64,000 nt of DNA from an uncultured Planctomycetia bacterium (GTDB lineage: Bacteria; Omnitrophota; Gorgyraeia; Velamenicoccales; Velamenicoccaceae): assembly GCA_964501505.1 (NCBI GenBank), contig CAZCSY010000001.1, forward strand, positions 4,962 through 68,961, written 5' to 3'. Both the position numbers and the translations under genes were made by a program. How positions within the stretch are numbered: position 1 is the stretch's first letter; each line of letters opens with the position of its first letter. Below the pieces are notes generated by a model. It was given only the letters and a program-made list of their open reading frames with translations. It was not told the DNA's origin and ran no database searches. Of this stretch, positions 1,174 to 41,810 are shown in pieces.

Positions 1174-1878
1174 GAAGAGGACGGGGCGGCAGATCTTTTT
1201 TTTGAAGAGCATCTTGAGAAACCGCAGGTAGGACGCGAAGACCCTGAGGTTGGCCGCCGTCAGCGTCTCGTGGTGGAAAAAGACACCCACCAGCCGGTGG
1301 CGGTTGAGGGCCGACAGCGTCTGCTGGACGAGACTCGGCAGGACGAGGGGCAGGCATTTATAATGTTGCGTGTAGGTGTTGACGCTGACCTGGGCCGCCA
1401 GGTAGAGGAGGTCCGGCGGGCAGGGCAGGGGCTTTGCAGGGCCGGCGGCGAAGGCCTCAAACGGCCCCTCGGCGGCCGCCCGAAGCGTCCGGGCGTCGTA
1501 GCCGTGGAAGGGCGGGACGAAGGCGGGCACGAGACGTGAGCCTAATTTTTTGTTGAGCACCTGCCATCCCTTTTCCATGTCTTTTTTCTGGCGGGCGAAG
1601 GCCCGGCGGGGGCCGAATTCGTAGCGCTTGAGGCGGTGGCCGAAGTTCCGATGGGTCCACCCGTGCTGGACGACGTCAAAGGGGATCTTTTTTGCGGCCG
1701 GAGACCTGAGAAAGGTCACCAGCCTTTTTTTTATTCGTTGCGGGATCACGGCGTAGACGACAGGGATGTCTTTTTGCGCGCAGAGCTCGAATGCCGCGAG
1801 GAAGCGCGGCCGCGTGTCCGAGACGTCGTCGTCGCGCAGGAAGAGATAACGCGGACGATCCTTCAGGATTTCATCCAT
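1111..1878 (-). CDS. polysaccharide-deacetylase-like (DUF2334-type) protein
   Basis: LFLRDDDV and VVQHGWTHRNFG motifs resemble predicted deacetylases. The start overlaps the stop of the upstream minus-strand radical SAM gene. The 3' end overlaps the convergent + gene by 63 nt. Confidence 0.55.
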   Translation of the reverse strand: MDEILKDRPRYLFLRDDDVSDTRPRFLAAFELCAQKDIPVVYAVIPQRIKKRLVTFLRSPAAKKIPFDVVQHGWTHRNFGHRLKRYEFGPRRAFARQKKDMEKGWQVLNKKLGSRLVPAFVPPFHGYDARTLRAAAEGPFEAFAAGPAKPLPCPPDLLYLAAQVSVNTYTQHYKCLPLVLPSLVQQTLSALNRHRLVGVFFHHETLTAANLRVFASYLRFLKMLFKKKICRPVLFSDILRQKRYFQALTASHAPR

Positions 1879-3275
1879 GGGTCTCTGGCGAAGAAGGTCT
1901 TAAAGGCCTGCCGGGCCCAGAATCGGCTGCCGCCCCGGCACCTGAGCAGGTCCTCGCACCGGCGGCAGGCGGCCGGCAGATAGGCGAAGCCGCACAGGGT
2001 CTTGCGATAGGGATGTTGCCATGCCTTTTCGATCTCCCCGCCGCACGACACGTCGATAAAATAGCTGGGTTTGAAGACGCCCCGGGTGTCCCGCACGAGA
2101 CGGCTGTGGCCGTCGTCGAAATAGGCGCCGGTCAGGATGAGGTCTCTTTTGGTCTTGTCGGCGACGCTGCAGAAAGGCACGGGGTTGGCGACGGTAGCGA
2201 ACAGCCCCCGGCGGCCGAGCGACCAGAGCCGTCCGACGAGGCGGCTGATGTCTCGGGCCGTGACGTCATATTCTTTGTCGCTGGCAGCGTCCTTGCGGAC
2301 GATCATGGGCCGGAAGAGCTCCCAGCGCCTAATGCCCAGATCCTTGATGAGCCCGCTATAGGCGTCGAGGTGCTTGAGGAGCGTGCGCGAGATGACCGTG
2401 CCGCAGCGCAGGAGAGGGATGCCCGCCCTGACGAGCCGGCGGATGTGATCGGTCTTTTTCGCAAAGAGGCGGCCGCCGCGCGTGAGGCGTTCTTCGCTCG
2501 CGGCATCGTGTCCCTGGAGCGATATCAGGATGTTGTCGACGTACCGCGAGATGGCGCCGAGCATCTTTTCGGGCAGGACGGTGGCGTTGGTGTTTAACAG
2601 GACATAGAGATTTTTCTCCTTGGCATATTTTAAGAGCTCCGGCAGATCCGGCCGTAGCAGCGGCTCGCCTCCCGTCAACCGGATGTTCGGGATGCCCAGG
2701 CGGCGGGTTGCGTCGATGACCCCTTTTATCTCTTTCTTCGCCAGGGCGGTCGGCGATGCCTTTTTTGAAGCAAAACAGGCCCGGCAGCGGAGGTTGCACG
2801 TCGTGTTGACTTCGATGACGATCTCATTCGGCTGGTCGGGGACAGGGCGCAGAAAGGACAGAAGGTTTTCGTCACGCCGGGCGCCGGGCCGCGGCGCGGC
2901 GATACCGGGGCAGAATGTCTTGAGGTGACAGGCCTCGCAGAGAGCGATTCGGTTGTAGGCGTGCCTGCCCTTTCGCTCATAGACGACGTGGTCCCAGGCC
3001 TCCGGCAGAAAGCAGAAGGGGATGCCTTTGAGCCGGATCACGAACCAGTCCTCGAAGCCGTTGAGGAGCTTATAGAGGAGGAACTGGATGATCTCTTTGC
3101 GTCGTTGCGAGGCAAAGTCTTTGATGCCGACTTCGATGCGGCGCCTATCGGTCTCCAGGCGCCAGGAGGCGCCCAGGAGGACAAGGGCCCGGCGGATATG
3201 CTTCAAGACGGTCTCGGCAGTCACGGGACTCACGGAAGGATCCGGGATGCCGTTTTTCACCAGAGCGCTTTTCAT
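1863..3275 (-). CDS. radical SAM/SPASM-domain protein with ~160-aa N-terminal extension
   Basis: TTCNLRCRACF, TGGEPLL and a C-terminal CGGE..CGF..CRRCEDLLRCRGG region. ATG at 3275 (MKSALV) is chosen over the ORF opening at 3365 because a conserved leader and RBS lie immediately upstream. Confidence 0.85.
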   Translation of the reverse strand: MKSALVKNGIPDPSVSPVTAETVLKHIRRALVLLGASWRLETDRRRIEVGIKDFASQRRKEIIQFLLYKLLNGFEDWFVIRLKGIPFCFLPEAWDHVVYERKGRHAYNRIALCEACHLKTFCPGIAAPRPGARRDENLLSFLRPVPDQPNEIVIEVNTTCNLRCRACFASKKASPTALAKKEIKGVIDATRRLGIPNIRLTGGEPLLRPDLPELLKYAKEKNLYVLLNTNATVLPEKMLGAISRYVDNILISLQGHDAASEERLTRGGRLFAKKTDHIRRLVRAGIPLLRCGTVISRTLLKHLDAYSGLIKDLGIRRWELFRPMIVRKDAASDKEYDVTARDISRLVGRLWSLGRRGLFATVANPVPFCSVADKTKRDLILTGAYFDDGHSRLVRDTRGVFKPSYFIDVSCGGEIEKAWQHPYRKTLCGFAYLPAACRRCEDLLRCRGGSRFWARQAFKTFFARDPWMKS

Positions 3276-3402
3276 GGCAGGTCCCTTTTTTACTCGACAC
3301 CTCAGGCCTGGCGGTGCCGCTTGCGCGTCCCCGGCCCCGCCCCGCCTCTTGGCGGGACGCGCCAAACGGTCGGACTTCTTCGCCCGAGCAGCGCCTTACG
3401 CA
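3276..3402 (-). promoter_or_regulatory. conserved structured 5' leader, copy A (homologous to 11908-12021)
   Basis: The minus-strand sequence aligns with 11908-12021. A 30-nt core (3311-3340 vs 11961-11990) differs at 1 position, and similarity continues through gtcgag-A-run-RBS to the ATG. Confidence 0.5.
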
Positions 3403-3408
3403 GAAGGC

Positions 3409-3437
3409 ATCTTACACCGCACAGAGGGATTTTGCAA
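3409..3437 (-). promoter_or_regulatory. sigma70-like promoter for the minus-strand radical SAM arm
   Basis: On the minus strand: TTGCAA, 17 nt, TAAGAT, placed just upstream of leader copy A. Confidence 0.4.
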
Positions 3438-3649: not shown

Positions 3650-4192
3650 ATGGGGCGGACTTTCTTTGGTTCGGAGTGGAAGGTGAGTTTTTTTGAGGCA
3701 TTGGCACTGTTTTTTCTTTTTGCCTTCGGCGCTTTTGTCTTCTACGGCTATTGCCAGGAAGAGCGCATCACCTTGACCACCTACTATCCAGCCCCCTTTG
3801 GTATTTACCGTGACCTGAACGTCACGCGCACCCTTAATATGTCGGTCGCCAACGCGACCAACCCCACCAACGGGATTTATTTTAACGGTCCGACCGGCGG
3901 CGCCATGATGCGCGGTTTTACCAACCAGTTGCGGATAGAAATAGCCAATGCGGCGGCCAACACCATCTATATGGGGTCCACCACTGGTTGCGGCGTGGTC
4001 CTCGGGAACGACGGCAACGTGTATGTGTGCGCGGATGTACTCGTGCATTCGAGCGGTCCCGGGCATGGCTGCTTCGTCGTGACGTATAGTTCGTTCAGCG
4101 GCATCACGGCATGCCCGGGCGGTTACACCGTGAACCTGGCGTTGTCGGGCGTGGCGACGACCACCGGCGGAGTATTTTTCTGCTGTAAGTAA
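3650..4192 (+). CDS. exported or membrane-anchored Cys-rich protein, no family recognised
   Basis: RBS aaggaggg. N-terminal hydrophobic helix FFEALALFFLFAFGAFVFYG. Gly/Thr/Asn-rich body with 7 Cys, ending in ..GGVFFCCK. Confidence 0.7.
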   Translation: MGRTFFGSEWKVSFFEALALFFLFAFGAFVFYGYCQEERITLTTYYPAPFGIYRDLNVTRTLNMSVANATNPTNGIYFNGPTGGAMMRGFTNQLRIEIANAAANTIYMGSTTGCGVVLGNDGNVYVCADVLVHSSGPGHGCFVVTYSSFSGITACPGGYTVNLALSGVATTTGGVFFCCK

Positions 4193-4197
4193 AAAAG

Positions 4198-4611
4198 ATG
4201 AGAGAATTCGTCTTAAGGGTCAGCGAAGACATCTATCCCGCGGAAGCGGTCTTGAACACCTGTTACCTTTTTCTGGAGCGCGCGTATTTTTTTGTGGAGC
4301 GGGAGAAAACAGGGATGAAGGTTCTGAAGATCCATATCCGGCCCAAAGAGAACGCCGGTGCCCCGCGGGCGCTCAAGGCTCTGCGCGGTGCGTTTTTGGA
4401 CGAGTTGGTCTATTCGTCTCTGCGCTGTACCCTGGCGCGCGAGAACCGCAAGATCCGGGAGTTTATCGTCGGCAGCGCGCTCTACGCGCAGGCCGGTTTT
4501 TCGAAGGACGAGCTTTTTTTGTCGCCGAGCGCCGACTACGAAGAGGATCCGCTGGGTATCGCCAAAACGCTGAAGAGGCGCCGTGGCAAGAAGACTTCGC
4601 AGACAATTTGA
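4198..4611 (+). CDS. hxsD: HxsD-like His-Xaa-Ser system protein
   Basis: Size, position next to the radical SAM pair and an FLDELVYSSLR..LARE segment resemble the LLNDYxLRE-type HxsD family. Assignment is by motif only. Confidence 0.6.
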   Translation: MREFVLRVSEDIYPAEAVLNTCYLFLERAYFFVEREKTGMKVLKIHIRPKENAGAPRALKALRGAFLDELVYSSLRCTLARENRKIREFIVGSALYAQAGFSKDELFLSPSADYEEDPLGIAKTLKRRRGKKTSQTI

Positions 4612-4612
4612 C

Positions 4613-4804
4613 ATGACGCTCTACAGGAAGGACGCCCTCCGGCGGGCCCTGGCGGCCTTCCGGGCATTCGCGGATTTCAGGGTGGTTCCCCTCCCGGGCG
4701 GTCGCATCGAGGTTGAGGTCCGCCGGTGTCCGACGGCCTATCGGCGCAGCATCCTGGATGAGTTCGCCAACTATCTCTTGGGGGCGACGTGGAAGGCGCA
4801 TTGA
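4613..4804 (+). CDS. small HxsD-like paralogue (63 aa)
   Basis: ATG lies 1 nt after the hxsD stop. ..RIEVEVRRCP..SILDEFANYLLGA echoes the HxsD C-terminal motif. The start is uncertain because the ORF also opens at GTG 4583. Confidence 0.5.
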   Translation: MTLYRKDALRRALAAFRAFADFRVVPLPGGRIEVEVRRCPTAYRRSILDEFANYLLGATWKAH

Positions 4805-6315
4805 GGCCGCCGCGGTTGGAGCGCAAGCGTGTCGGGTATTTCCGGTTCAAGAGGTTCAAGGACCGTTTTCTCTTGACCAATGATTTCGGGTACTTTATCT
4901 TTCTCTCTCGGCGTTCATTTCTTGCATTTGTGGAAGGGCGTTTCGAGGACCTCGACCCCGGGACGTTCCGGGAGTTGGAAGACAGGGGCATGGTCCGGGA
5001 CAAGATGTATCTGCCCCGGCTGATCAATAAGTTCGCGGCGAAGAATTTTTGCGGGCGCGGGCCGGATCTGCATATCGTCGTCGTCACCCTGCGGTGCACC
5101 CACCGTTGCGTGTATTGTCACGCCGGGGCGGCGGGGTTCGGTGAGCGGGGCGTGGACATGACGCGCGCGACGGCCCGCAAGACGCTTGACAAGATCTTCG
5201 AGACGCCGAGCAAGTACGTCACGATCGAGTTCCAGGGCGGCGAGCCGCTCTTGAATTTTGACGTCGTGCGCTTCATGATCCTGCGGGGTCTTGAGAAGAA
5301 CCGGACGGCCAAAAAGAACCTGAGCTTTTGCGTCGTCACGAATCTCTGGCCCATGACGGATGCGATCCTGGACTTTCTGGCGGCGCACAAGATTCAGATC
5401 TGCATGTCGTTGGACGGGCCCCGGACGCTGCACGACCGTCAGCGACCTCTCCTGAACGGCAGAGGGACACACCGGAACACGGTGGCGTGGCTCAAAAAGG
5501 TCAGAAAGCGGTACGCGAAGACGAAAGGTGTCCCCCTGCCGGGGGCGCTGCTGACGTTGACGCGGCTCTCTTTGAAATATCCCCGGCAGATCGTGGATGA
5601 GTACCTCCGGTGCGGCCTGAACAACATCCACCTGCGGCCCGTCAGTCCCTTCGGCATTTCGTCGGAGGCATGGCAGGATTACCGCCTCTCGTCCGCGGCC
5701 TTTCTTGAGTTTTATCGCAAGACCCTGGATTATATCCTGGCGCTCAACAAGAAGGGCGTGTTTTTCACGGAACGTTACGCCGCCATCTTCCTTTCTAAGA
5801 TCCTGACGGGCATCGATCCGGCCTTTCTGGACCTGCGGTCGCCCTGCGGGGCGGGGATCGGGCAGTTGGCGTATAATTACGATGGTGCCGTCTACACGTG
5901 CGACGAAGGCCGGATGCTGGGCCGGCGCGGCGATCCCAGTTTCCGGATTGCCGATATCGACGGGTTCTCCATCACGCGGCTGGGCGACAGTGAGGTCGTG
6001 CGGTCCGTCTGCACCGCGTCGTGCCTCGACGTCATTCCGGGGTGCGCGGACTGCGTGTACAAACCTTATTGCGGGACGTGCCCGGTTTATAACCATTTCA
6101 CAGGGGGGAGCATTTTTGGTCGGACGCCCTTTTTGTGCGAGATCTACACGGGCATCCTGGATATGTTATTCGAGAAGTTGAGCGAGCCGAGTACGGAGTC
6201 TCTCTTGCTGAGGTGGGTGGGAGCCACCAGAATCGGCGGCTCGCGGCCGACACGAGGTCGTCCGCAGGCGAAAAAGACGAACAAACGGGAAGATTTTTTA
6301 GAAGGGGAGGTGTAG
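4789..6315 (+). CDS. hxsB: radical SAM/SPASM maturase, HxsB-like
   Basis: RCTHRCVYCHA and FQGGEPLL motifs. SPASM-type C-terminus CGAG..YDGAVYTCDEG..CADCVYKPYCGTCP. N-terminal YFRFKRF..LLTNDFG extension. GTG start overlaps the previous gene. Confidence 0.8.
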   Translation: MEGALRPPRLERKRVGYFRFKRFKDRFLLTNDFGYFIFLSRRSFLAFVEGRFEDLDPGTFRELEDRGMVRDKMYLPRLINKFAAKNFCGRGPDLHIVVVTLRCTHRCVYCHAGAAGFGERGVDMTRATARKTLDKIFETPSKYVTIEFQGGEPLLNFDVVRFMILRGLEKNRTAKKNLSFCVVTNLWPMTDAILDFLAAHKIQICMSLDGPRTLHDRQRPLLNGRGTHRNTVAWLKKVRKRYAKTKGVPLPGALLTLTRLSLKYPRQIVDEYLRCGLNNIHLRPVSPFGISSEAWQDYRLSSAAFLEFYRKTLDYILALNKKGVFFTERYAAIFLSKILTGIDPAFLDLRSPCGAGIGQLAYNYDGAVYTCDEGRMLGRRGDPSFRIADIDGFSITRLGDSEVVRSVCTASCLDVIPGCADCVYKPYCGTCPVYNHFTGGSIFGRTPFLCEIYTGILDMLFEKLSEPSTESLLLRWVGATRIGGSRPTRGRPQAKKTNKREDFLEGEV

Positions 6316-6317
6316 CG

Positions 6318-6632
6318 ATGGCAAAGCAAAGGAAGAAGACCGCCGCATTGCCGCAGATCAAAAAGGAGATCAAAGACTTCCTCATGGACGAGGAAGGGAG
6401 GATCTCCAAAAAGGACATCGCCAAGCTGGGTCTGTCTCTGGCCGTCCTGGGATTCATGCTGCAGCCGGAGATCTCTCTGGCCCAGCACCATAATAACTAT
6501 ACGTCCCACATCAGTAGCTTTGCGGCTACGGGCCACCTGTCAACATCCAAGCACCAAAACACGCACTACAACCACTCAAACCACGGCAACCACTCCAACC
6601 ATTCCAGCCACTCCAACCACGGCAGTTATTAA
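6318..6632 (+). CDS. hxsA: His-repeat precursor peptide, HxsA-like (104 aa)
   Basis: RBS gaaggggagg. Lys-rich N-region, one hydrophobic helix (LGLSLAVLGFML) and a C-terminal tail with period-3 His: HSN HGN HSN HSS HSN HGS. It is embedded in track ORF 6135..6632. Confidence 0.8.
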   Translation: MAKQRKKTAALPQIKKEIKDFLMDEEGRISKKDIAKLGLSLAVLGFMLQPEISLAQHHNNYTSHISSFAATGHLSTSKHQNTHYNHSNHGNHSNHSSHSNHGSY

Positions 6633-6724
6633 TTGCTGGCGGGGTGCGTTGCGGGCGGACGTTTTTGTTAAGCCGGAAGAGAGGTAGGCTGTGCATGAGT
6701 TTGACTTTTTGACCTCCTTTTTTT

Positions 6725-7612
6725 ATGAATCGGCGTCTCGATCTGAAGGTCACCTACCAGTGCAATAACTTCTGTCGTCTCTGCGTGCAGGGCAACAAGC
6801 GCCGGCGCTTCCCCCGTCCCCCCCGCCTCGCCTATCTTAAAAAAATAATGGAGACCAAGCGCGCCACGTGCCGCGAGGTCATCTTCACCGGCGGGGAGCC
6901 GACGATCCGTCCGGATATCTTTGAGCTCATCGCATGTGCGAAGGGACTCGGGTATGAGGTTCAGATCCAGACGAACGGCCGCATGTTCGCCTACAGGGAT
7001 TTCGCGAAGAAGGTCGTCCGTATGGGCGTCGATTCGTTCGGCGTCTCCCTGCACGGCGCCGACGCCAAGACCCAGGATTTTCTGACACGCGTCCGGGGGA
7101 GCTTTAAACAGGTGACGCACGGCATCGCCAACCTTCTGGCCCTGAGGGCGGTCCTCTCCACGAACACCGTCATCAACAAATACAACTACCGTCAGCTCTT
7201 GAAGCTGGTGGACGTGCTTCATGATCTGGGTGTCGCGCAGTTCCAGCTCTCGTACCCCCACATCCTCGGCGAGGCGCGGCGCAACCGCAAGACGCTCGTC
7301 CTCAAAAAGTCCACCGTGGTCCCCTATATCCTGAAAGCCATCGAGAGGGGATTCGCGTACAACATGGTTCCCAAGGTCGAGGCTATCCCGGCGTGCCTCC
7401 TGGGTCCCTACAAAGACTGCTTGACCGACTGTGAAGTCCCGCATACCTGGGTGTGGGAGATGGCGGGGGCCAGGGATTTTACCGCTTGGTGCAAGGCAAA
7501 GGGAAAGGCGCATGGAGAGGTGTGCCGTTCCTGTCGGCTGGCGGGCGTCTGCGAGGGCCCATGGTGCGAGTACGTCACCCATTACGGCTGGGATGAGTTC
7601 CGCGCCCAGTAA
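6725..7612 (+). CDS. hxsC: radical SAM protein, HxsC-like
   Basis: YQCNNFCRLC lies 13 aa from the start, followed by TGGEPT. Cys-rich C-terminus (CLLGPYKDCLTDC..CRSCRLAGVCEGPWC). No obvious RBS. Confidence 0.75.
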   Translation: MNRRLDLKVTYQCNNFCRLCVQGNKRRRFPRPPRLAYLKKIMETKRATCREVIFTGGEPTIRPDIFELIACAKGLGYEVQIQTNGRMFAYRDFAKKVVRMGVDSFGVSLHGADAKTQDFLTRVRGSFKQVTHGIANLLALRAVLSTNTVINKYNYRQLLKLVDVLHDLGVAQFQLSYPHILGEARRNRKTLVLKKSTVVPYILKAIERGFAYNMVPKVEAIPACLLGPYKDCLTDCEVPHTWVWEMAGARDFTAWCKAKGKAHGEVCRSCRLAGVCEGPWCEYVTHYGWDEFRAQ

Positions 7613-11443: not shown

Positions 11444-11581
11444 AGTTTTTCACGACCGCGGGGCGTGTCCGGAAAGCGCTTTCCCAAAAAGCGGCGGGGC
11501 GCCTTGTCGCGGGCCGATTCTTGAGTAAACTCTGCTTTGAAAGGAGCGAATGCGAGAGAGTCGCATCCAAACTAAATCCTG

Positions 11582-11611
11582 GGGTCGGCAGCGATGCCGA
11601 CCCTCTTTTTT
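11582..11611 (+). terminator. intrinsic terminator
   Basis: GGGTCGGC-agcgat-GCCGACCC followed by TCTTTTTT. Confidence 0.7.
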
Positions 11612-11779
11612 ATCCCGTCTTCGCAGCATATCCCAGGTTTACCCCGGCAGAATCTTGGCAATGGCCGGGGTTGACCCCGGCAACGTCTTTTCTAGCGCGC
11701 CCGTTTCGTAAAGACCTCTTTGGGCGCATCGTGTTTTTGAAGTGTGCGTTTGAGGCGTGCGGGACAAGGAGGCTGAGTC

Positions 11780-11808
11780 TTTAAAAAAAGGGGCTTTCGA
11801 TGTATAAT
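11780..11808 (+). promoter_or_regulatory. possible promoter of the tRNA-binding-protein operon
   Basis: TATAAT at 11803-11808 preceded by TG. The -35 is weak (TTTAAA) at 17-nt spacing. Confidence 0.3.
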
Positions 11809-11823
11809 GAGGCACGGTAAGAG

Positions 11824-11885
11824 CGCTGGCGCGACGAATAAGGAGCGCCGTTAAGCGCGGCCGCCGAGAAGGTGAGGCGGCCCAG
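11824..11885 (+). repeat. partial tandem copy (B1) of the conserved leader element
   Basis: cgctggcgcgacgaataaggagcgccgtt is identical to 11908-11936 (84-nt period). It is followed by a hairpin GGCCGCC..GGCGGCC in place of CCCCGCC..GGCGGGG. Confidence 0.6.
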
Positions 11886-11907
11886 ATGCAGGTGTTTTTC
11901 CTCTTAA

Positions 11908-12021
11908 CGCTGGCGCGACGAATAAGGAGCGCCGTTGAGCGCGCCCCGCCAAGAAGTCTGGCGGGGCCAGGGACGCGCAAGCGGCACCGCGGCATCTCGG
12001 GAGTCGAGAAAAAGGAGAGGC
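11908..12021 (+). promoter_or_regulatory. conserved structured 5' leader, copy B2
   Basis: Homologous to the minus strand of 3276-3402. It has two hairpins (GGCGC..GCGCC and CCCCGCC..GGCGGGG) and ends in the RBS aaaggagagg and the ATG at 12022. Confidence 0.5.
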
Positions 12022-12360
12022 ATGGAAGGCGAAGAGGCGACTGTTTCCTATGAAGAGTTTCGCAAGATCATCCTGAAGGTAGCGACGATCAGGGAGGTCA
12101 AGGCGCACCCGAAGGCGGACAGGCTCTGGGTGTTGACGATCGACACGGGCAGCGCAACGCGGACGATCGTGGCCGGCATTAAGGCCTTTTACGCGCCCGA
12201 GCAGCTGGCGGGAAGGCAGGTCATCCTGGTGGATAATCTGGCGCCGGCAGATATCCGCGGAGTGAGGAGTCAAGGGATGCTTCTGGCCGCAAGCGATGAG
12301 GCCGGGATCGCGATCCTCTCGCCGGACCGTCACGTGCAGGAAGGCAGTCTCGTGAAATGA
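12022..12360 (+). CDS. tRNA-binding domain protein (CsaA/YgjH-like)
   Basis: ..KAHPKADRLWVLTIDTG..IVAGIKAFY..NLAPADIRGVRSQGMLLAA.. is a typical OB-fold tRNA-binding domain. ATG with RBS aaaggagagg. Confidence 0.8.
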   Translation: MEGEEATVSYEEFRKIILKVATIREVKAHPKADRLWVLTIDTGSATRTIVAGIKAFYAPEQLAGRQVILVDNLAPADIRGVRSQGMLLAASDEAGIAILSPDRHVQEGSLVK

Positions 12361-14216: not shown

Positions 14217-15637
14217 ACCATACCGTCCATCGCACGCTTACAGACCGCAGGCCCCTTCATGTTTTGTTTGAGGCATTAAAGAAGGACGAGAGGCCCTTTT
14301 TGCTCGAGAGCGGCCTGAACGTGGCCGGCATGGGCCGCTATTCCTTTTTCGGCAGCGAGCCCTTTTGTGTGATCACGCGGCACAAGGAGTGTTTCACCGT
14401 TGAGGAAGAGGGCCGCGTGCGGACGGTCTGCCGGCCGGCCCTCGGGGTCCTGCGTGCGCTTCTCGACCGGTGGCGGCTCGGCGGCAAGAAAGCGTCTGTC
14501 CCTTTTTTGGGCGGGGCCGTGGGCTTTCTGGCTTATGACTTCGGTTTTTCTCTGGAGCGCTTCACCCGGCGGCACGTCCCTGTCGCGGCCACGCCGCAGC
14601 TCTCCTTTGCTTTTTACGATACGATTTATATTAAAGACCACGAGACCGGCCGGCTCACCGTTTTTTCAACGGGTTTCCCCGAGACGAGCGGCGCCCTGCG
14701 TCGGCGCCGGGCCCAGGAGCGCCTGGCGCGCGCCCTCAAGAAGCTGGAGCACAGCGGTCTGCCGGCGACACCTGTGGTCGAGATGCCATCTCGACCAGCG
14801 GCGACAGGAGGGCTTTGCGGACCGTTGCGGTCGAACTTCACGCCGGCCCGCTACAAGAGGGCGGTGCGCAGGGCCAAGGAGTTTATCGCCCGGGGTGACA
14901 TTTATCAGGTCAATTTGGCACAGCGGTTTCGCGCAACGGCCCGCTTTGATCCGTGGCGGCTTTACGGCCGCCTGGCCCGGCGTTTCCCTGTTTCTTTCGG
15001 CGCCTATCTGGGCGGCCCGGGCTATGTCCTCTTGAGCGTTTCTCCCGAGCGGTTCTTGAAGTTCGACGGCCGGCGGGTGGTGACGCGGCCGATGAAGGGG
15101 ACGCGTCCGCGCACCGCAAGCCGCGACGCAAACCGGCGCCTGTACCGCGAGCTGAGACGCGACAAGAAAGAAAAGGCAGAGCTTCTCATGATCGTGGATC
15201 TGGAGCGCAACGACCTGGGCCGCGTGTGCGATTATGCGAGCGTGCGCGTCGAGGAGCTGCGCGTGATCGAGCGGTACGCCAACGTGTATCAGGCGACGGC
15301 CCAGATCTCCGGCCGGCTGCACGCCTCCAAGGACAGGATCGATGTCCTGGGCGCCTGTTTTCCCGGCGGGTCGGTGACGGGCTGTCCCAAGATCCGCGCC
15401 ATGGAGGTTATCGAGGAGCTGGAGCCCGAGGCCCGGGGGATTTATACGGGGGCCCTGGGATATTTGAGCTTTCATAACACGATGGAGTTCAGCATGTTGA
15501 TCCGGACGCTGCTGTGGCAGCGGGACCAGGTCTCTTTTCATGTGGGCGGCGGGATCGTGACCGACTCGCGGCCCGCCTTCGAATACGACGAAACGCTGGT
15601 GAAGGCGCGCGCGCTGATTGAGGCGCTGCAGGAGTAA
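14213..15637 (+). CDS. pabB: aminodeoxychorismate/anthranilate synthase component I
   Basis: GDIYQVNLAQRF, SPERFL, GGSVTGCPKIRAMEVIEELE and GIYTGALGY motifs. ATGA overlap. Followed by a class IV lyase gene. Confidence 0.85.
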   Translation: MNHTVHRTLTDRRPLHVLFEALKKDERPFLLESGLNVAGMGRYSFFGSEPFCVITRHKECFTVEEEGRVRTVCRPALGVLRALLDRWRLGGKKASVPFLGGAVGFLAYDFGFSLERFTRRHVPVAATPQLSFAFYDTIYIKDHETGRLTVFSTGFPETSGALRRRRAQERLARALKKLEHSGLPATPVVEMPSRPAATGGLCGPLRSNFTPARYKRAVRRAKEFIARGDIYQVNLAQRFRATARFDPWRLYGRLARRFPVSFGAYLGGPGYVLLSVSPERFLKFDGRRVVTRPMKGTRPRTASRDANRRLYRELRRDKKEKAELLMIVDLERNDLGRVCDYASVRVEELRVIERYANVYQATAQISGRLHASKDRIDVLGACFPGGSVTGCPKIRAMEVIEELEPEARGIYTGALGYLSFHNTMEFSMLIRTLLWQRDQVSFHVGGGIVTDSRPAFEYDETLVKARALIEALQE

Positions 15638-32439: not shown

Positions 32440-32559
32440 CCTGCTTCGGCGGGATGTCACGGGATGGCCAGCCCCGGCCATAGGTGAGTTTCTGCCGGGG
32501 TAAACCCTGCGCAAGATATTGGGCCGGAGCAGTTGCTCCGGGTTTGCCGAGGGGAGTTC

Positions 32560-41078: not shown

Positions 41079-41216
41079 GACCTCCAGTTTGCCCCGTATC
41101 ACGGGAAGGCAAGGGCTGGTGATAGGGGGTAAACCCCCTATCACGGGAAGGTGAGAGCCGGTGACGCGGGACCTCCGGCCCCGCATCACAGGAAGGCAAG
41201 AGCCGGTGACGCGGGG
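41079..41216 (+). repeat. three tandem conserved hairpins between mnmE and folE
   Basis: Units at 41092-41129, 41134-41170 and 41179-41216. Pattern: CCCC(g/c)(t/c)ATCAC-(g/a)GGAAGG(c/t)(a/g)AG(g/a)GC(t/c)G-GTGA(t/c)(a/g)(g/c)GGG. Units 1 and 3 are each preceded by GACCTCC. Confidence 0.7.
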
Positions 41217-41246
41217 CCTTCGGCGGGATAGGAGTGAGGGTAAATC

Positions 41247-41810
41247 ATGGACAAGAAGAAGATCGAGAAGGCGATACGCATGATCCTGGAGGCGATCGGG
41301 GAGGACCCGCACCGCCGGGACCTGGAGGAGACGCCCGAGCGCGTGGCGGACATGTATGAGGAGATATTTCTGGGTCTCAGCGAGGACCCCAAGAAGGAGC
41401 TGGAGGTCATCCTTGACCAGAAGCACGAAGAGATCGTCCTTTTAAAAGACATCCCGCTCTATTCCGTCTGCGAACACCACCTCATCCCGTTCATCGGTCG
41501 GGCGCACGTGGCGTATATCCCGAAGGGCGGACGGGTGACGGGCCTGAGCAAGATCGCCCGCGTGGTAGAGATCCTCTCCAGGCGGCCACAGGTGCAGGAG
41601 CGGTTGACGACCCAGGTGGCCGGCGTGATCATGGACAAGCTCAAGCCTTTGGGGGTGATGGTGGTGATTGAGGCCGAGCACCTGTGCCTGAGCATGCGCG
41701 GGGTGAAGAAGCCCGGTATCACGACGGTGACGAGCGCGGTCCGTGGGGTCTTCAAGGAGAACGAAAAGACGCGCTCGGAGACCCTGGCGCTTATCAAGGG
41801 AGTCCGGTAG
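41247..41810 (+). CDS. folE: GTP cyclohydrolase I
   Basis: ..[34 protein letters not shown].. Confidence 0.92.

Follow-up and report, generated by a model that had tools for sequence, protein, structure and literature searches.

Why should two unrelated genes share the sequence that leads up to their start codons? In the 64-kb stretch of DNA analysed here (64,000 nucleotides from an uncultured bacterium, hereafter the window), a first-pass annotation had pointed to such a common leader upstream of a radical SAM (rSAM) gene and of a gene for a tRNA-binding domain (tRNA_bind). It had read this leader as a cis-acting RNA, riboswitch-like or bound by a protein or small RNA, that co-regulates both genes rather than as a random repeat. 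The two genes are indeed unrelated, with their products belonging to PF04055 and PF01588, respectively. The features on which the following argument draws are, in window coordinates:

1863..3275, minus strand: radical SAM gene (PF04055; matches of the generic SPASM type, neither HxsB nor HxsC), with copy 1 in its leader
3284..3287, minus strand: right AAGG of the direct repeat around copy 1, which is also part of the Shine-Dalgarno-like AAGGGA that precedes the ATG at 3275 by 8-9 nt
3288..3393, minus strand: copy 1, 106 nt, made up of the composite hairpin P1, a CCGUUNRG bulge, P2 (CCCGCC/GGCGGG), the 30-nt core and the tail GUCGAGUAAAA; 118.8 bits
3311..3340, minus strand: core of copy 1, 30 nt, an imperfect hairpin GCGGGGCC...GGCACCGC around CGC-GCAA-GCG
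3394..3397, minus strand: left AAGG, on the promoter side of copy 1, the direct repeat flanking it
3409..3437, minus strand: resident promoter of the radical SAM gene, TTGCAA-17 nt-TAAGAT, conserved in four related lineages without the element
11780..11808, plus strand: resident promoter of the tRNA_bind operon, TTTAAA-17 nt-TATAAT, whose -10 box (11803-11808) is conserved in six related lineages
11824..11880, plus strand: unit 1, a partial tandem copy with P1 and an older-type P2, GGCCGCC-GAGAAGGUGA-GGCGGCC; 53 bits
11881..11907, plus strand: 27-nt spacer between unit 1 and unit 2, CCAGAUGCAGGUGUUUUUCCUCUUAA, without a homologue in the other copies
11908..12013, plus strand: copy 2 (unit 2), full-length, 128.9 bits, whose right junction AAAAAGGAG rebuilds the Shine-Dalgarno (SD) sequence of the tRNA_bind gene
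11961..11990, plus strand: core of copy 2, 30 nt, matching the core pattern
12022..12360, plus strand: tRNA-binding-domain gene (PF01588; MetRS beta-chain/CsaA-like), which heads a long plus-strand array

A repeat search of the window aligned 3288-3393 (minus strand) with 11908-12013 (plus strand) over 106 nt without a gap, 78 of the 106 positions being identical (74%), so that the similarity between the two leaders lies where it had been reported. The 30-nt core GCGGGGCC(G/A)GGGACGCGCAAGCGGCACCGC also proved exact at 3311-3340 (minus strand) and 11961-11990 (plus strand), with a single difference; nothing else in the 64 kb resembles it even when three mismatches are allowed, and none of 100 shuffles matched. 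Identity between the copies is uneven, reaching 88% in the central 52 nt and 59% in the remaining 54 nt (Fisher p = 8e-4), and the run of 29 identical positions out of 30 in the core has a permutation p of 0.006. From core to ATG the distance is 35 nt in copy 1 and 31 nt in copy 2, in keeping with the approximately 30 nt first given. The copies themselves end 12 nt before the ATG at 3275 and 8 nt before the ATG at 12022, and the 3' tail of the element is GUCGAG(U)A5-6GG, 8-9 nt ahead of the ATGs. Copy 1 is not an assembly artefact, because the independent assemblies L001 and L002 carry the same copy unchanged. Unit 1 (11824-11880), which the annotation had missed, matches the opening 36 nt of 11908-12013 at 97% identity, and the spacer that follows it (11881-11907) contains a CCUCUU able to pair with the SD sequence GAGAGG in the minimum-free-energy fold.

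Both copies begin 8-11 nt past the predicted transcription start. As had been described, they stand in sense orientation between promoter-like sites and ATGs, and the promoters are conserved in relatives. Within the element itself we found no promoter-like sites at either locus. Placed as it is after conserved -10 boxes and before start codons, the element almost certainly forms part of both transcripts as their 5' leader.

Divergently from the radical SAM gene lies a Hxs (His-Xaa-Ser) RiPP-type cluster (window 3650-7612). Its members include HxsD (4198-4611), HxsB (4789-6315; TIGR03978, 472 bits), an HxsC-like radical SAM protein (6725-7612) and an HxsA-like precursor with six CACTCCAAC (His-Ser-Asn) repeats (6564-6620).

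To see how these genes look elsewhere, we compared the rSAM locus with those of four lineages (amino acid identity L031 80%, L034 75%, L073 74%, L033 68%) and the tRNA_bind locus with those of six (L038 85%, L078 84%, L074 83%, L083 81%, L037 80%, L042 75%). The element is absent from the rSAM site in all four other lineages and from the tRNA_bind site in five of six (L037, L042, L074, L078, L083), being present only in L038, and at these empty sites 0-22 nt separate promoter and start codon. The four rSAM relatives keep the divergent intergenic region up to the promoter CTTGCAAAAT...GTGTAAGATG (that is, CTTGCAAAATCC-N-GTGTAAGATG) and then run straight into the gene. The empty site of L031 reads TAAGATGCTTCTGCATAAG|CAGACCAGCCATG (a junction that can also be given as TGCATAAG|CAGACCAGCCATG), and in L034 22 nt separate the promoter region from the start codon. 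In L073 (2325-2350) and L033 (9995-10020), the rSAM ATG lies 7-8 nt past the conserved -10 box TAAGAT, which suggests that the mRNAs of these two lineages are leaderless. In the window, the same flanks are found with 106 nt between them (...CTGCGTAAGG|CGCTGC...GTCGAGTAAAAAGG|GACCTGCCATG). The five empty tRNA_bind sites follow the pattern TATAAT-GGGGCCC-(T)ACMAAGG|GAGGGG..ATGG.

L031 has an ATA in place of the ATG used in L073 and L033, and an ATG 15 nt further on is used instead. Together with the window, L031, L073 and L033 form a natural series of leader lengths for the rSAM gene.

The junctions carry a further signature. At the rSAM site (TAAGG|CGCTG...AAAAAGG|GACC), AAGG is present at both ends of the element and only once at the empty sites. 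At the tRNA_bind site, AAGGG stands at both junctions in L038 and once at the empty sites; the window has AAG(G) at both, its left junction reading AAGAG. Terminal inverted repeats (TIRs) were not detected, the first 30 nt scoring 5 when aligned with the reverse-complemented final 30 nt, a score reached by 72-74% of shuffles (p = 0.72-0.74). Given the empty sites in relatives and the AAGG or AAG(G) direct repeat that is double at filled and single at empty sites, the comparison shows that the element entered the genome by insertion. Window and L038 are mutual nearest relatives, and because only L038 shares the tRNA_bind element while four rSAM lineages are empty, the alignments date one insertion, that at the tRNA_bind site, to the ancestor shared by the window and L038 lineages, and a second, at the rSAM site, to the window lineage. 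We found no transposase. Both window insertions are sense-oriented within a target of only 15-20 nt; such a double outcome is improbable at random, so that target specificity or selection is needed to account for it.

The region upstream of the tRNA_bind gene holds other small repeats. At window positions ~11495-11612, a promoter-like site precedes a ~75-nt stretch with a GUGCGA-GAGA-GUCGCAC hairpin and the intrinsic terminator GGGGTCGGCAGCGATGCCGACCCTCTTTTTT. This stretch is near-invariant in the window and in L038, L037, L042, L074 and L083, the flanking spacer is not conserved, and its sole Rfam match is a sub-threshold one to sroB (25 bits). It is a candidate small RNA gene between an 84-aa ORF and the tRNA_bind promoter. 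Between the candidate terminator and that promoter, a window-specific insertion of ~170 nt contains a 41-nt palindrome CCCCGGC...GCCGGGG (11636-11676), of which an inverted copy with 83% identity lies at 32466-32506; these palindromes look like a second small repeat family in the window genome. The same upstream region bears three copies of GGGGACGTACACGTCTGTCCC...GGGACAGACGTGTACGTCCCC in L083 (640-980) and a GGGACAGACACTATTTATT... palindrome in L078 (55-170). The spacer thus appears to be a hotspot for small repeats, and it tolerates such DNA, since other lineages carry unrelated palindromic insertions there.

We then considered whether the inserted element has a structure that is maintained. 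In a five-sequence alignment, 94.5% of cells were paired and 13 of 21 pairs had changed on both sides, a count equalled by none of 500 shuffles but drawn from only five sequences in an alignment fitted to the covariance model. Independently of that fitted alignment, three compensated pairs occur in P1 in the gapless alignment of three sequences. On the sense strand, four pairs are G-U and none is A-C. The copies therefore indicate that compensatory changes keep hairpins P1 and P2 intact. A functional RNA would likewise show such compensation, such pair types and a central block better conserved than its flanks; yet compensatory stems do not separate RNA function from hairpin-dependent DNA mobility. 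The unpaired CCGUUNRG bulge is invariant in all five P1 copies, and several hairpin loops bear SD-like purine runs (AAGGA, GAAGGUGA). Single-sequence folds are unremarkable, being only marginally better than those of shuffles (z = -0.7 to -2.9).

Beyond these constant parts, the copies have a mosaic build. There is hardly any variation in the core helices; P2 differs between copies in length and sequence, with a loop of 4 to 22 nt. Copy 1 has a P1 of the L034 type and copy 2 a P1 of the unit-1 type, and P2 and the core are common to both. The tRNA_bind copies of window and L038, which go back to one insertion according to the alignments above, have also diverged in build: the L038 copy lacks the inner P1 hairpin and has an unrelated 12-bp hairpin (GTGAGACAAAAGG...CCTTTGTCTCAC) where the 3' arm of P2 should be, and the window copy has the tandem partial duplication and its spacer. 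Four-fold degenerate sites are 76-82% identical between the two lineages (about 78%), and the L038 core, at ~80% identity to the window, is no better conserved than these neutral sites. Internal turnover of the element is fast and its interior mosaic. Restructuring of a shared copy while neutral sites are still ~78% identical makes an aptamer an unfit reading, as an aptamer would not tolerate such change.

Hairpins of another kind are found directly upstream of folE (41247-41810, TIGR00063), where three tandem units of ~43 nt with the pattern CCCCnTATCAC-GGGAAGGyrAGrGCyG-GTGAyrsGGGG occupy window 41092-41223. Their loops carry an SD-like GGGAAGGTGAG that resembles the P2 loop of unit 1, and they have no Rfam match at E < 5. 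These units are a candidate cis-regulatory or protein-titrating leader.

To gauge the extent of the family, we built one covariance model from the three window copies (R1) and another from five sequences (R2). With filters off, R1 recovered only the three copies in the window, the next match scoring 13 bits and falling within a coding region. On the relatives' loci it found the L038 copy and a new member, L034:15447-15539 (minus strand; 42 bits, E = 6.5e-8), the sequence of which is the same in L035. R2 added nothing in full-sensitivity scans of the window or of 84 kb of relatives' loci. The count thus comes to two full copies and one partial copy in the 64-kb window and one each in the L038 and L034 lineages. 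A model-based search, which had been suggested as a way to further copies, yielded one antisense member outside any leader (L034), and the many scattered copies that would mark a selfish repeat were not found in the 64-kb window or the 84 kb of relatives' loci.

The L034 member resembles the window copies in its hairpins and differs from them in its context. Its P1 is ~70% identical to that of copy 1 over 60 nt, its P2 resembles that of unit 1, and its outer stem is fully compensated (UCCU/AGGA versus CGCU/AGCG). It is not a leader: it lies antisense, 64 nt downstream of tRNA-Asp, with the next start codon 345 nt away. The segment that contains it is 157 nt long and has at its two ends 16 nt of the tRNA 3' end, repeated directly and without a mismatch.

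The surroundings of this member (L034 15305-15556) consist of tRNA-Asp (15305-15383), its terminator and a degenerate tRNA fragment, in which the D-arm TCGCTTAGCCT and, at 15541, the perfect 16-nt repeat of the tRNA 3' end are preserved. In place of the middle of the fragment stands the repeat-family member, in reverse complement. The arrangement could have arisen through an integration-type duplication or through disruption of a tandem tRNA copy.

Public databases added no further member. Rfam 15 gave no match at the gathering score in the whole window, and at E < 10 over both loci the matches reached 11-15 bits against cut-offs of 37-65; a 14.5-bit match to 'SAH' is on the wrong strand and covers a hairpin only. 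A search for the exact 18-mer core in 185,579 species-representative genomes returned 28 matches, all with unrelated flanks and in a number near chance. In JGI metagenomes, the pattern GCGCARGCGG-N14-22-GTCGAG-N0-1-AAAAAG had a sole true match (L059, of the L038 lineage), a weak negative given that the pattern cannot match copy 1 (T plus six A) and that the collection also missed several contigs known to carry the L038 copy. Nothing related was seen in viral contigs (three patterns) or in plasmids and phages (blastn), and six-frame translations of both copies, compared with 5.8 billion proteins so as to catch gene calls over-extended at the N-terminus, had no match at E <= 1.

How does the element compare with known small repeats and leaders? 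REP units are ~20-40 nt long and occur in hundreds of copies, typically at the 3' ends of genes, with a RAYT transposase. The element shares with REP, BIME and REPIN sequences the G+C-rich palindromes, the compensated stems, a modular mosaic build and the intergenic location, but at 106 nt, with three different hairpins and a low copy number in the sequence examined, it is too long and heterogeneous to be one of them; no RAYT-like gene was seen among the window ORFs scanned. PATEs of the IS200/IS605 family resemble it in lacking TIRs, in having subterminal hairpins, in strand-specific insertion by a short target (here YAAG) and in being small and non-autonomous. The left flank of the element is YAAG at both sites, but AAGG(G) occurs at both of its junctions, and its left and right hairpins (P1 and the core hairpin) are unlike each other, where a PATE has similar ones at its two ends. 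The IS200/IS605 family makes no target duplication, and the duplication present at the junctions thus makes this type of insertion an unfit model. With MITEs (Correia/CREE, ERIC/IRU, RUP) the element has in common that it is a non-coding insertion of ~100-150 nt with a short flanking direct repeat, empty sites in relatives, probable co-transcription with neighbouring genes and the capacity for stable folds. MITEs, however, have TIRs and one long end-to-end hairpin, whereas the element has three local hairpins, no TIRs and no known related transposase; despite the target duplication, it fails the definition of a MITE because it is without TIRs. SAM and SAH riboswitches share with it the position in the 5' leader upstream of a SAM-using enzyme and the multiple helices, but the element has no covariance-model match, is not conserved at orthologues and is unstable in its internal architecture.

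The closest likeness is to REP2 of Neisseria. REP2 is described (Delihas, 2011, PMC3184786) as a 120-150 bp repeat without TIRs that carries two 5' stem-loops and a ribosome-binding site and stands immediately ahead of 14 co-induced genes, whose 5' UTR it helps to form. There are 23-26 copies of REP2 per genome, compared with 2-3 in 64 kb for the element. As far as that text describes them, REP2 and the Borrelia IR-A/IR-B repeats (PMC3184786) are, like the element, TIR-less intergenic repeats of 100-150 nt that stand in sense orientation directly upstream of unrelated ORFs and form their 5' UTR. In REP2 as in the element, a pair of internal stem-loops lies towards the 5' end and the 3' end provides a ribosome-binding site, a likeness of design with no sequence relation seen. 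REP2 carries its own promoter and ATG, whereas at the element's sites promoter and start codon are resident and conserved in relatives without it; co-regulation has been shown for REP2, and the element is likened to it by sequence design alone. On these comparisons, we file the element as a small structured intergenic repeat that would be REP2-like in its working and is not a member of REP2.

Several specific mechanisms were tried and set aside. A T-box gave no match. For leader-peptide attenuation, the only ORF that runs through the leader is not common to the copies. No terminator or SD-sequestering fold is common to the copies: an intrinsic terminator is contradicted by the lack of a U-tract after the hairpins, and the 6-bp anti-SD pairing exists in copy 2 only, via the non-homologous spacer. 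A switch between mutually exclusive P2 and P3 helices, with GGCGGGG taking part in both, is available to copy 2 only, as the duplicated GCGGGG of copy 1 lets both helices form. An integron attC site (GTTRRRY in CCGTTRAGC) does not agree with copy 1, which has GTTTGGC and no matching inverse core, and the flanking genes are syntenic chromosomal genes.

Which reading, then, accounts best for the element? A riboswitch, in which an aptamer for a ligand such as SAM, SAH or 5'-deoxyadenosine would be coupled to an expression platform, suits the leader position, the radical SAM gene downstream, the several hairpins and the highly similar 30-nt core. The family is nevertheless restricted to a few closely related lineages and absent from most orthologues, Rfam returns only noise even at E < 10, no alternative pairing or terminator is common to the copies, the architecture is not conserved between window and L038, where the shared copy is internally rearranged, and the L034 member lies outside a leader. 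These comparative data make a riboswitch very unlikely, and this part of the first-pass annotation does not hold. The element might instead act as DNA, either as an operator just downstream of both promoters or as a pair of inverted repeats, 8.5 kb apart, that invert the Hxs cluster and swap promoters. Copies that start 8-11 nt after the predicted transcription start, that are mutually inverted and flank both promoters, and whose central block is near-identical, as if they recombined, would be in line with such roles. A sequence-specific duplex operator is disfavoured because the stems are compensatory: the hairpin arms change sequence yet keep their complementarity, the opposite of what an operator needs. 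Inversion is at odds with the gene order, since L001 and L002 are arranged as the window is and relatives without repeats share the same order; moreover, no recombinase gene appeared among the segment genes scanned against Pfam/NCBIfam (part of the segment ORFs). We regard either DNA-level role as improbable.

A more serious contender is that the element has been exapted as a regulatory leader, a cis-acting RNA through which one trans factor, common to both copies (an RNA-binding protein or a small RNA), would co-regulate the radical SAM gene and the tRNA_bind operon post-transcriptionally. Candidate recognition sites would be the CCGUUNRG bulge, the purine-rich SD-like loops (AAGGA, GAAGGUGA) and the 30-nt core. 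Much of what was found agrees with this: the two insertions between promoter and ATG are both sense-oriented, P1 and P2 have compensatory changes and the sense strand shows G-U pairs but none of the A-C type, CCGUUNRG is invariant in five P1 copies, the core is 29/30 identical although the flanks are at 59%, the tRNA_bind element has been retained since the split from the L038 lineage, and there is a precedent in Neisseria REP2, upstream of 14 coordinately induced genes according to the relevant part of PMC3184786. On the other hand, the orthologous genes at nine related loci manage without the element, conservation of the core between window and L038 is no better than neutral (about 80% versus about 78%), the P2 loop varies from 4 to 22 nt and one P2 arm has been replaced, the L034 member is outside any leader, no SD-sequestering or terminator fold is consistent across copies, and the covariation of the hairpins is equally expected of DNA repeats that are recognised as hairpins. 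We therefore hold this reading to be possible but doubtful. Of the original proposal of a cis-acting RNA leader, the leader position stands and is accompanied by compensatory changes in P1 and P2; the further claim of a regulator 'rather than a random repeat' is not supported, given the empty orthologous sites, the AAG(G) junctions and the non-leader member of L034.

The explanation that we favour, as probable though with considerable reserve, is that the element is a structured dispersed repeat that passively became the leader of both genes. The sequences would be explained by two independent sense insertions into very short or absent 5' UTRs, directly behind resident -10 boxes. With co-transcription, the element would then account for almost all of the radical SAM leader (about 125 nt) and, with the extra partial tandem unit, for the leader of the tRNA_bind operon (about 205 nt). 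The A-rich 3' end together with the duplicated AAGG would supply or rebuild the Shine-Dalgarno sequence, and because the end of the element plus AAGG would provide the ribosome-binding site, only sense insertions may survive at such tight sites. The near-identical central block of 52 nt would reflect mosaic exchange (gene conversion) among family members and not the conservation of an aptamer. An effect on expression, if any, would be the generic influence of 5' stem-loops on mRNA stability or translation initiation, the same for both genes, in the manner of the Neisseria REP2 repeats.

A bolder version of the element's role is that of a mobile '5'-leader cassette'. Such a cassette, TIR-less and A-tailed, would insert in sense orientation at Shine-Dalgarno-like sequences with a 4-5-bp AAGG(G) duplication, give leaderless or short-leader genes a long structured leader, and recruit unrelated genes into one post-transcriptional regulon via a factor that reads the CCGUU bulge, the SD-like loops and the 30-nt core. 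We consider this unlikely as a whole.

If the passive-repeat reading is right, it carries a caution: a long leader common to unrelated genes may be a recent insertion of a structured repeat and not a regulator, and comparison of orthologous sites settles this choice quickly. Should the regulatory reading be true instead, the element would be a REP2-like mobile module that wires genes into a common control circuit in an uncultured lineage. As a dispersed repeat, it would represent a new and previously undescribed small family of ~106-nt, G+C-rich, hairpin-forming non-coding sequences in uncultured bacteria related to the window organism. The rSAM locus would then offer a natural example of the birth of a 5' UTR, in which one promoter-gene junction exists in apparently leaderless, 15-nt and 125-nt versions and the hairpins come with the inserted repeat, which also restores the ribosome-binding site.
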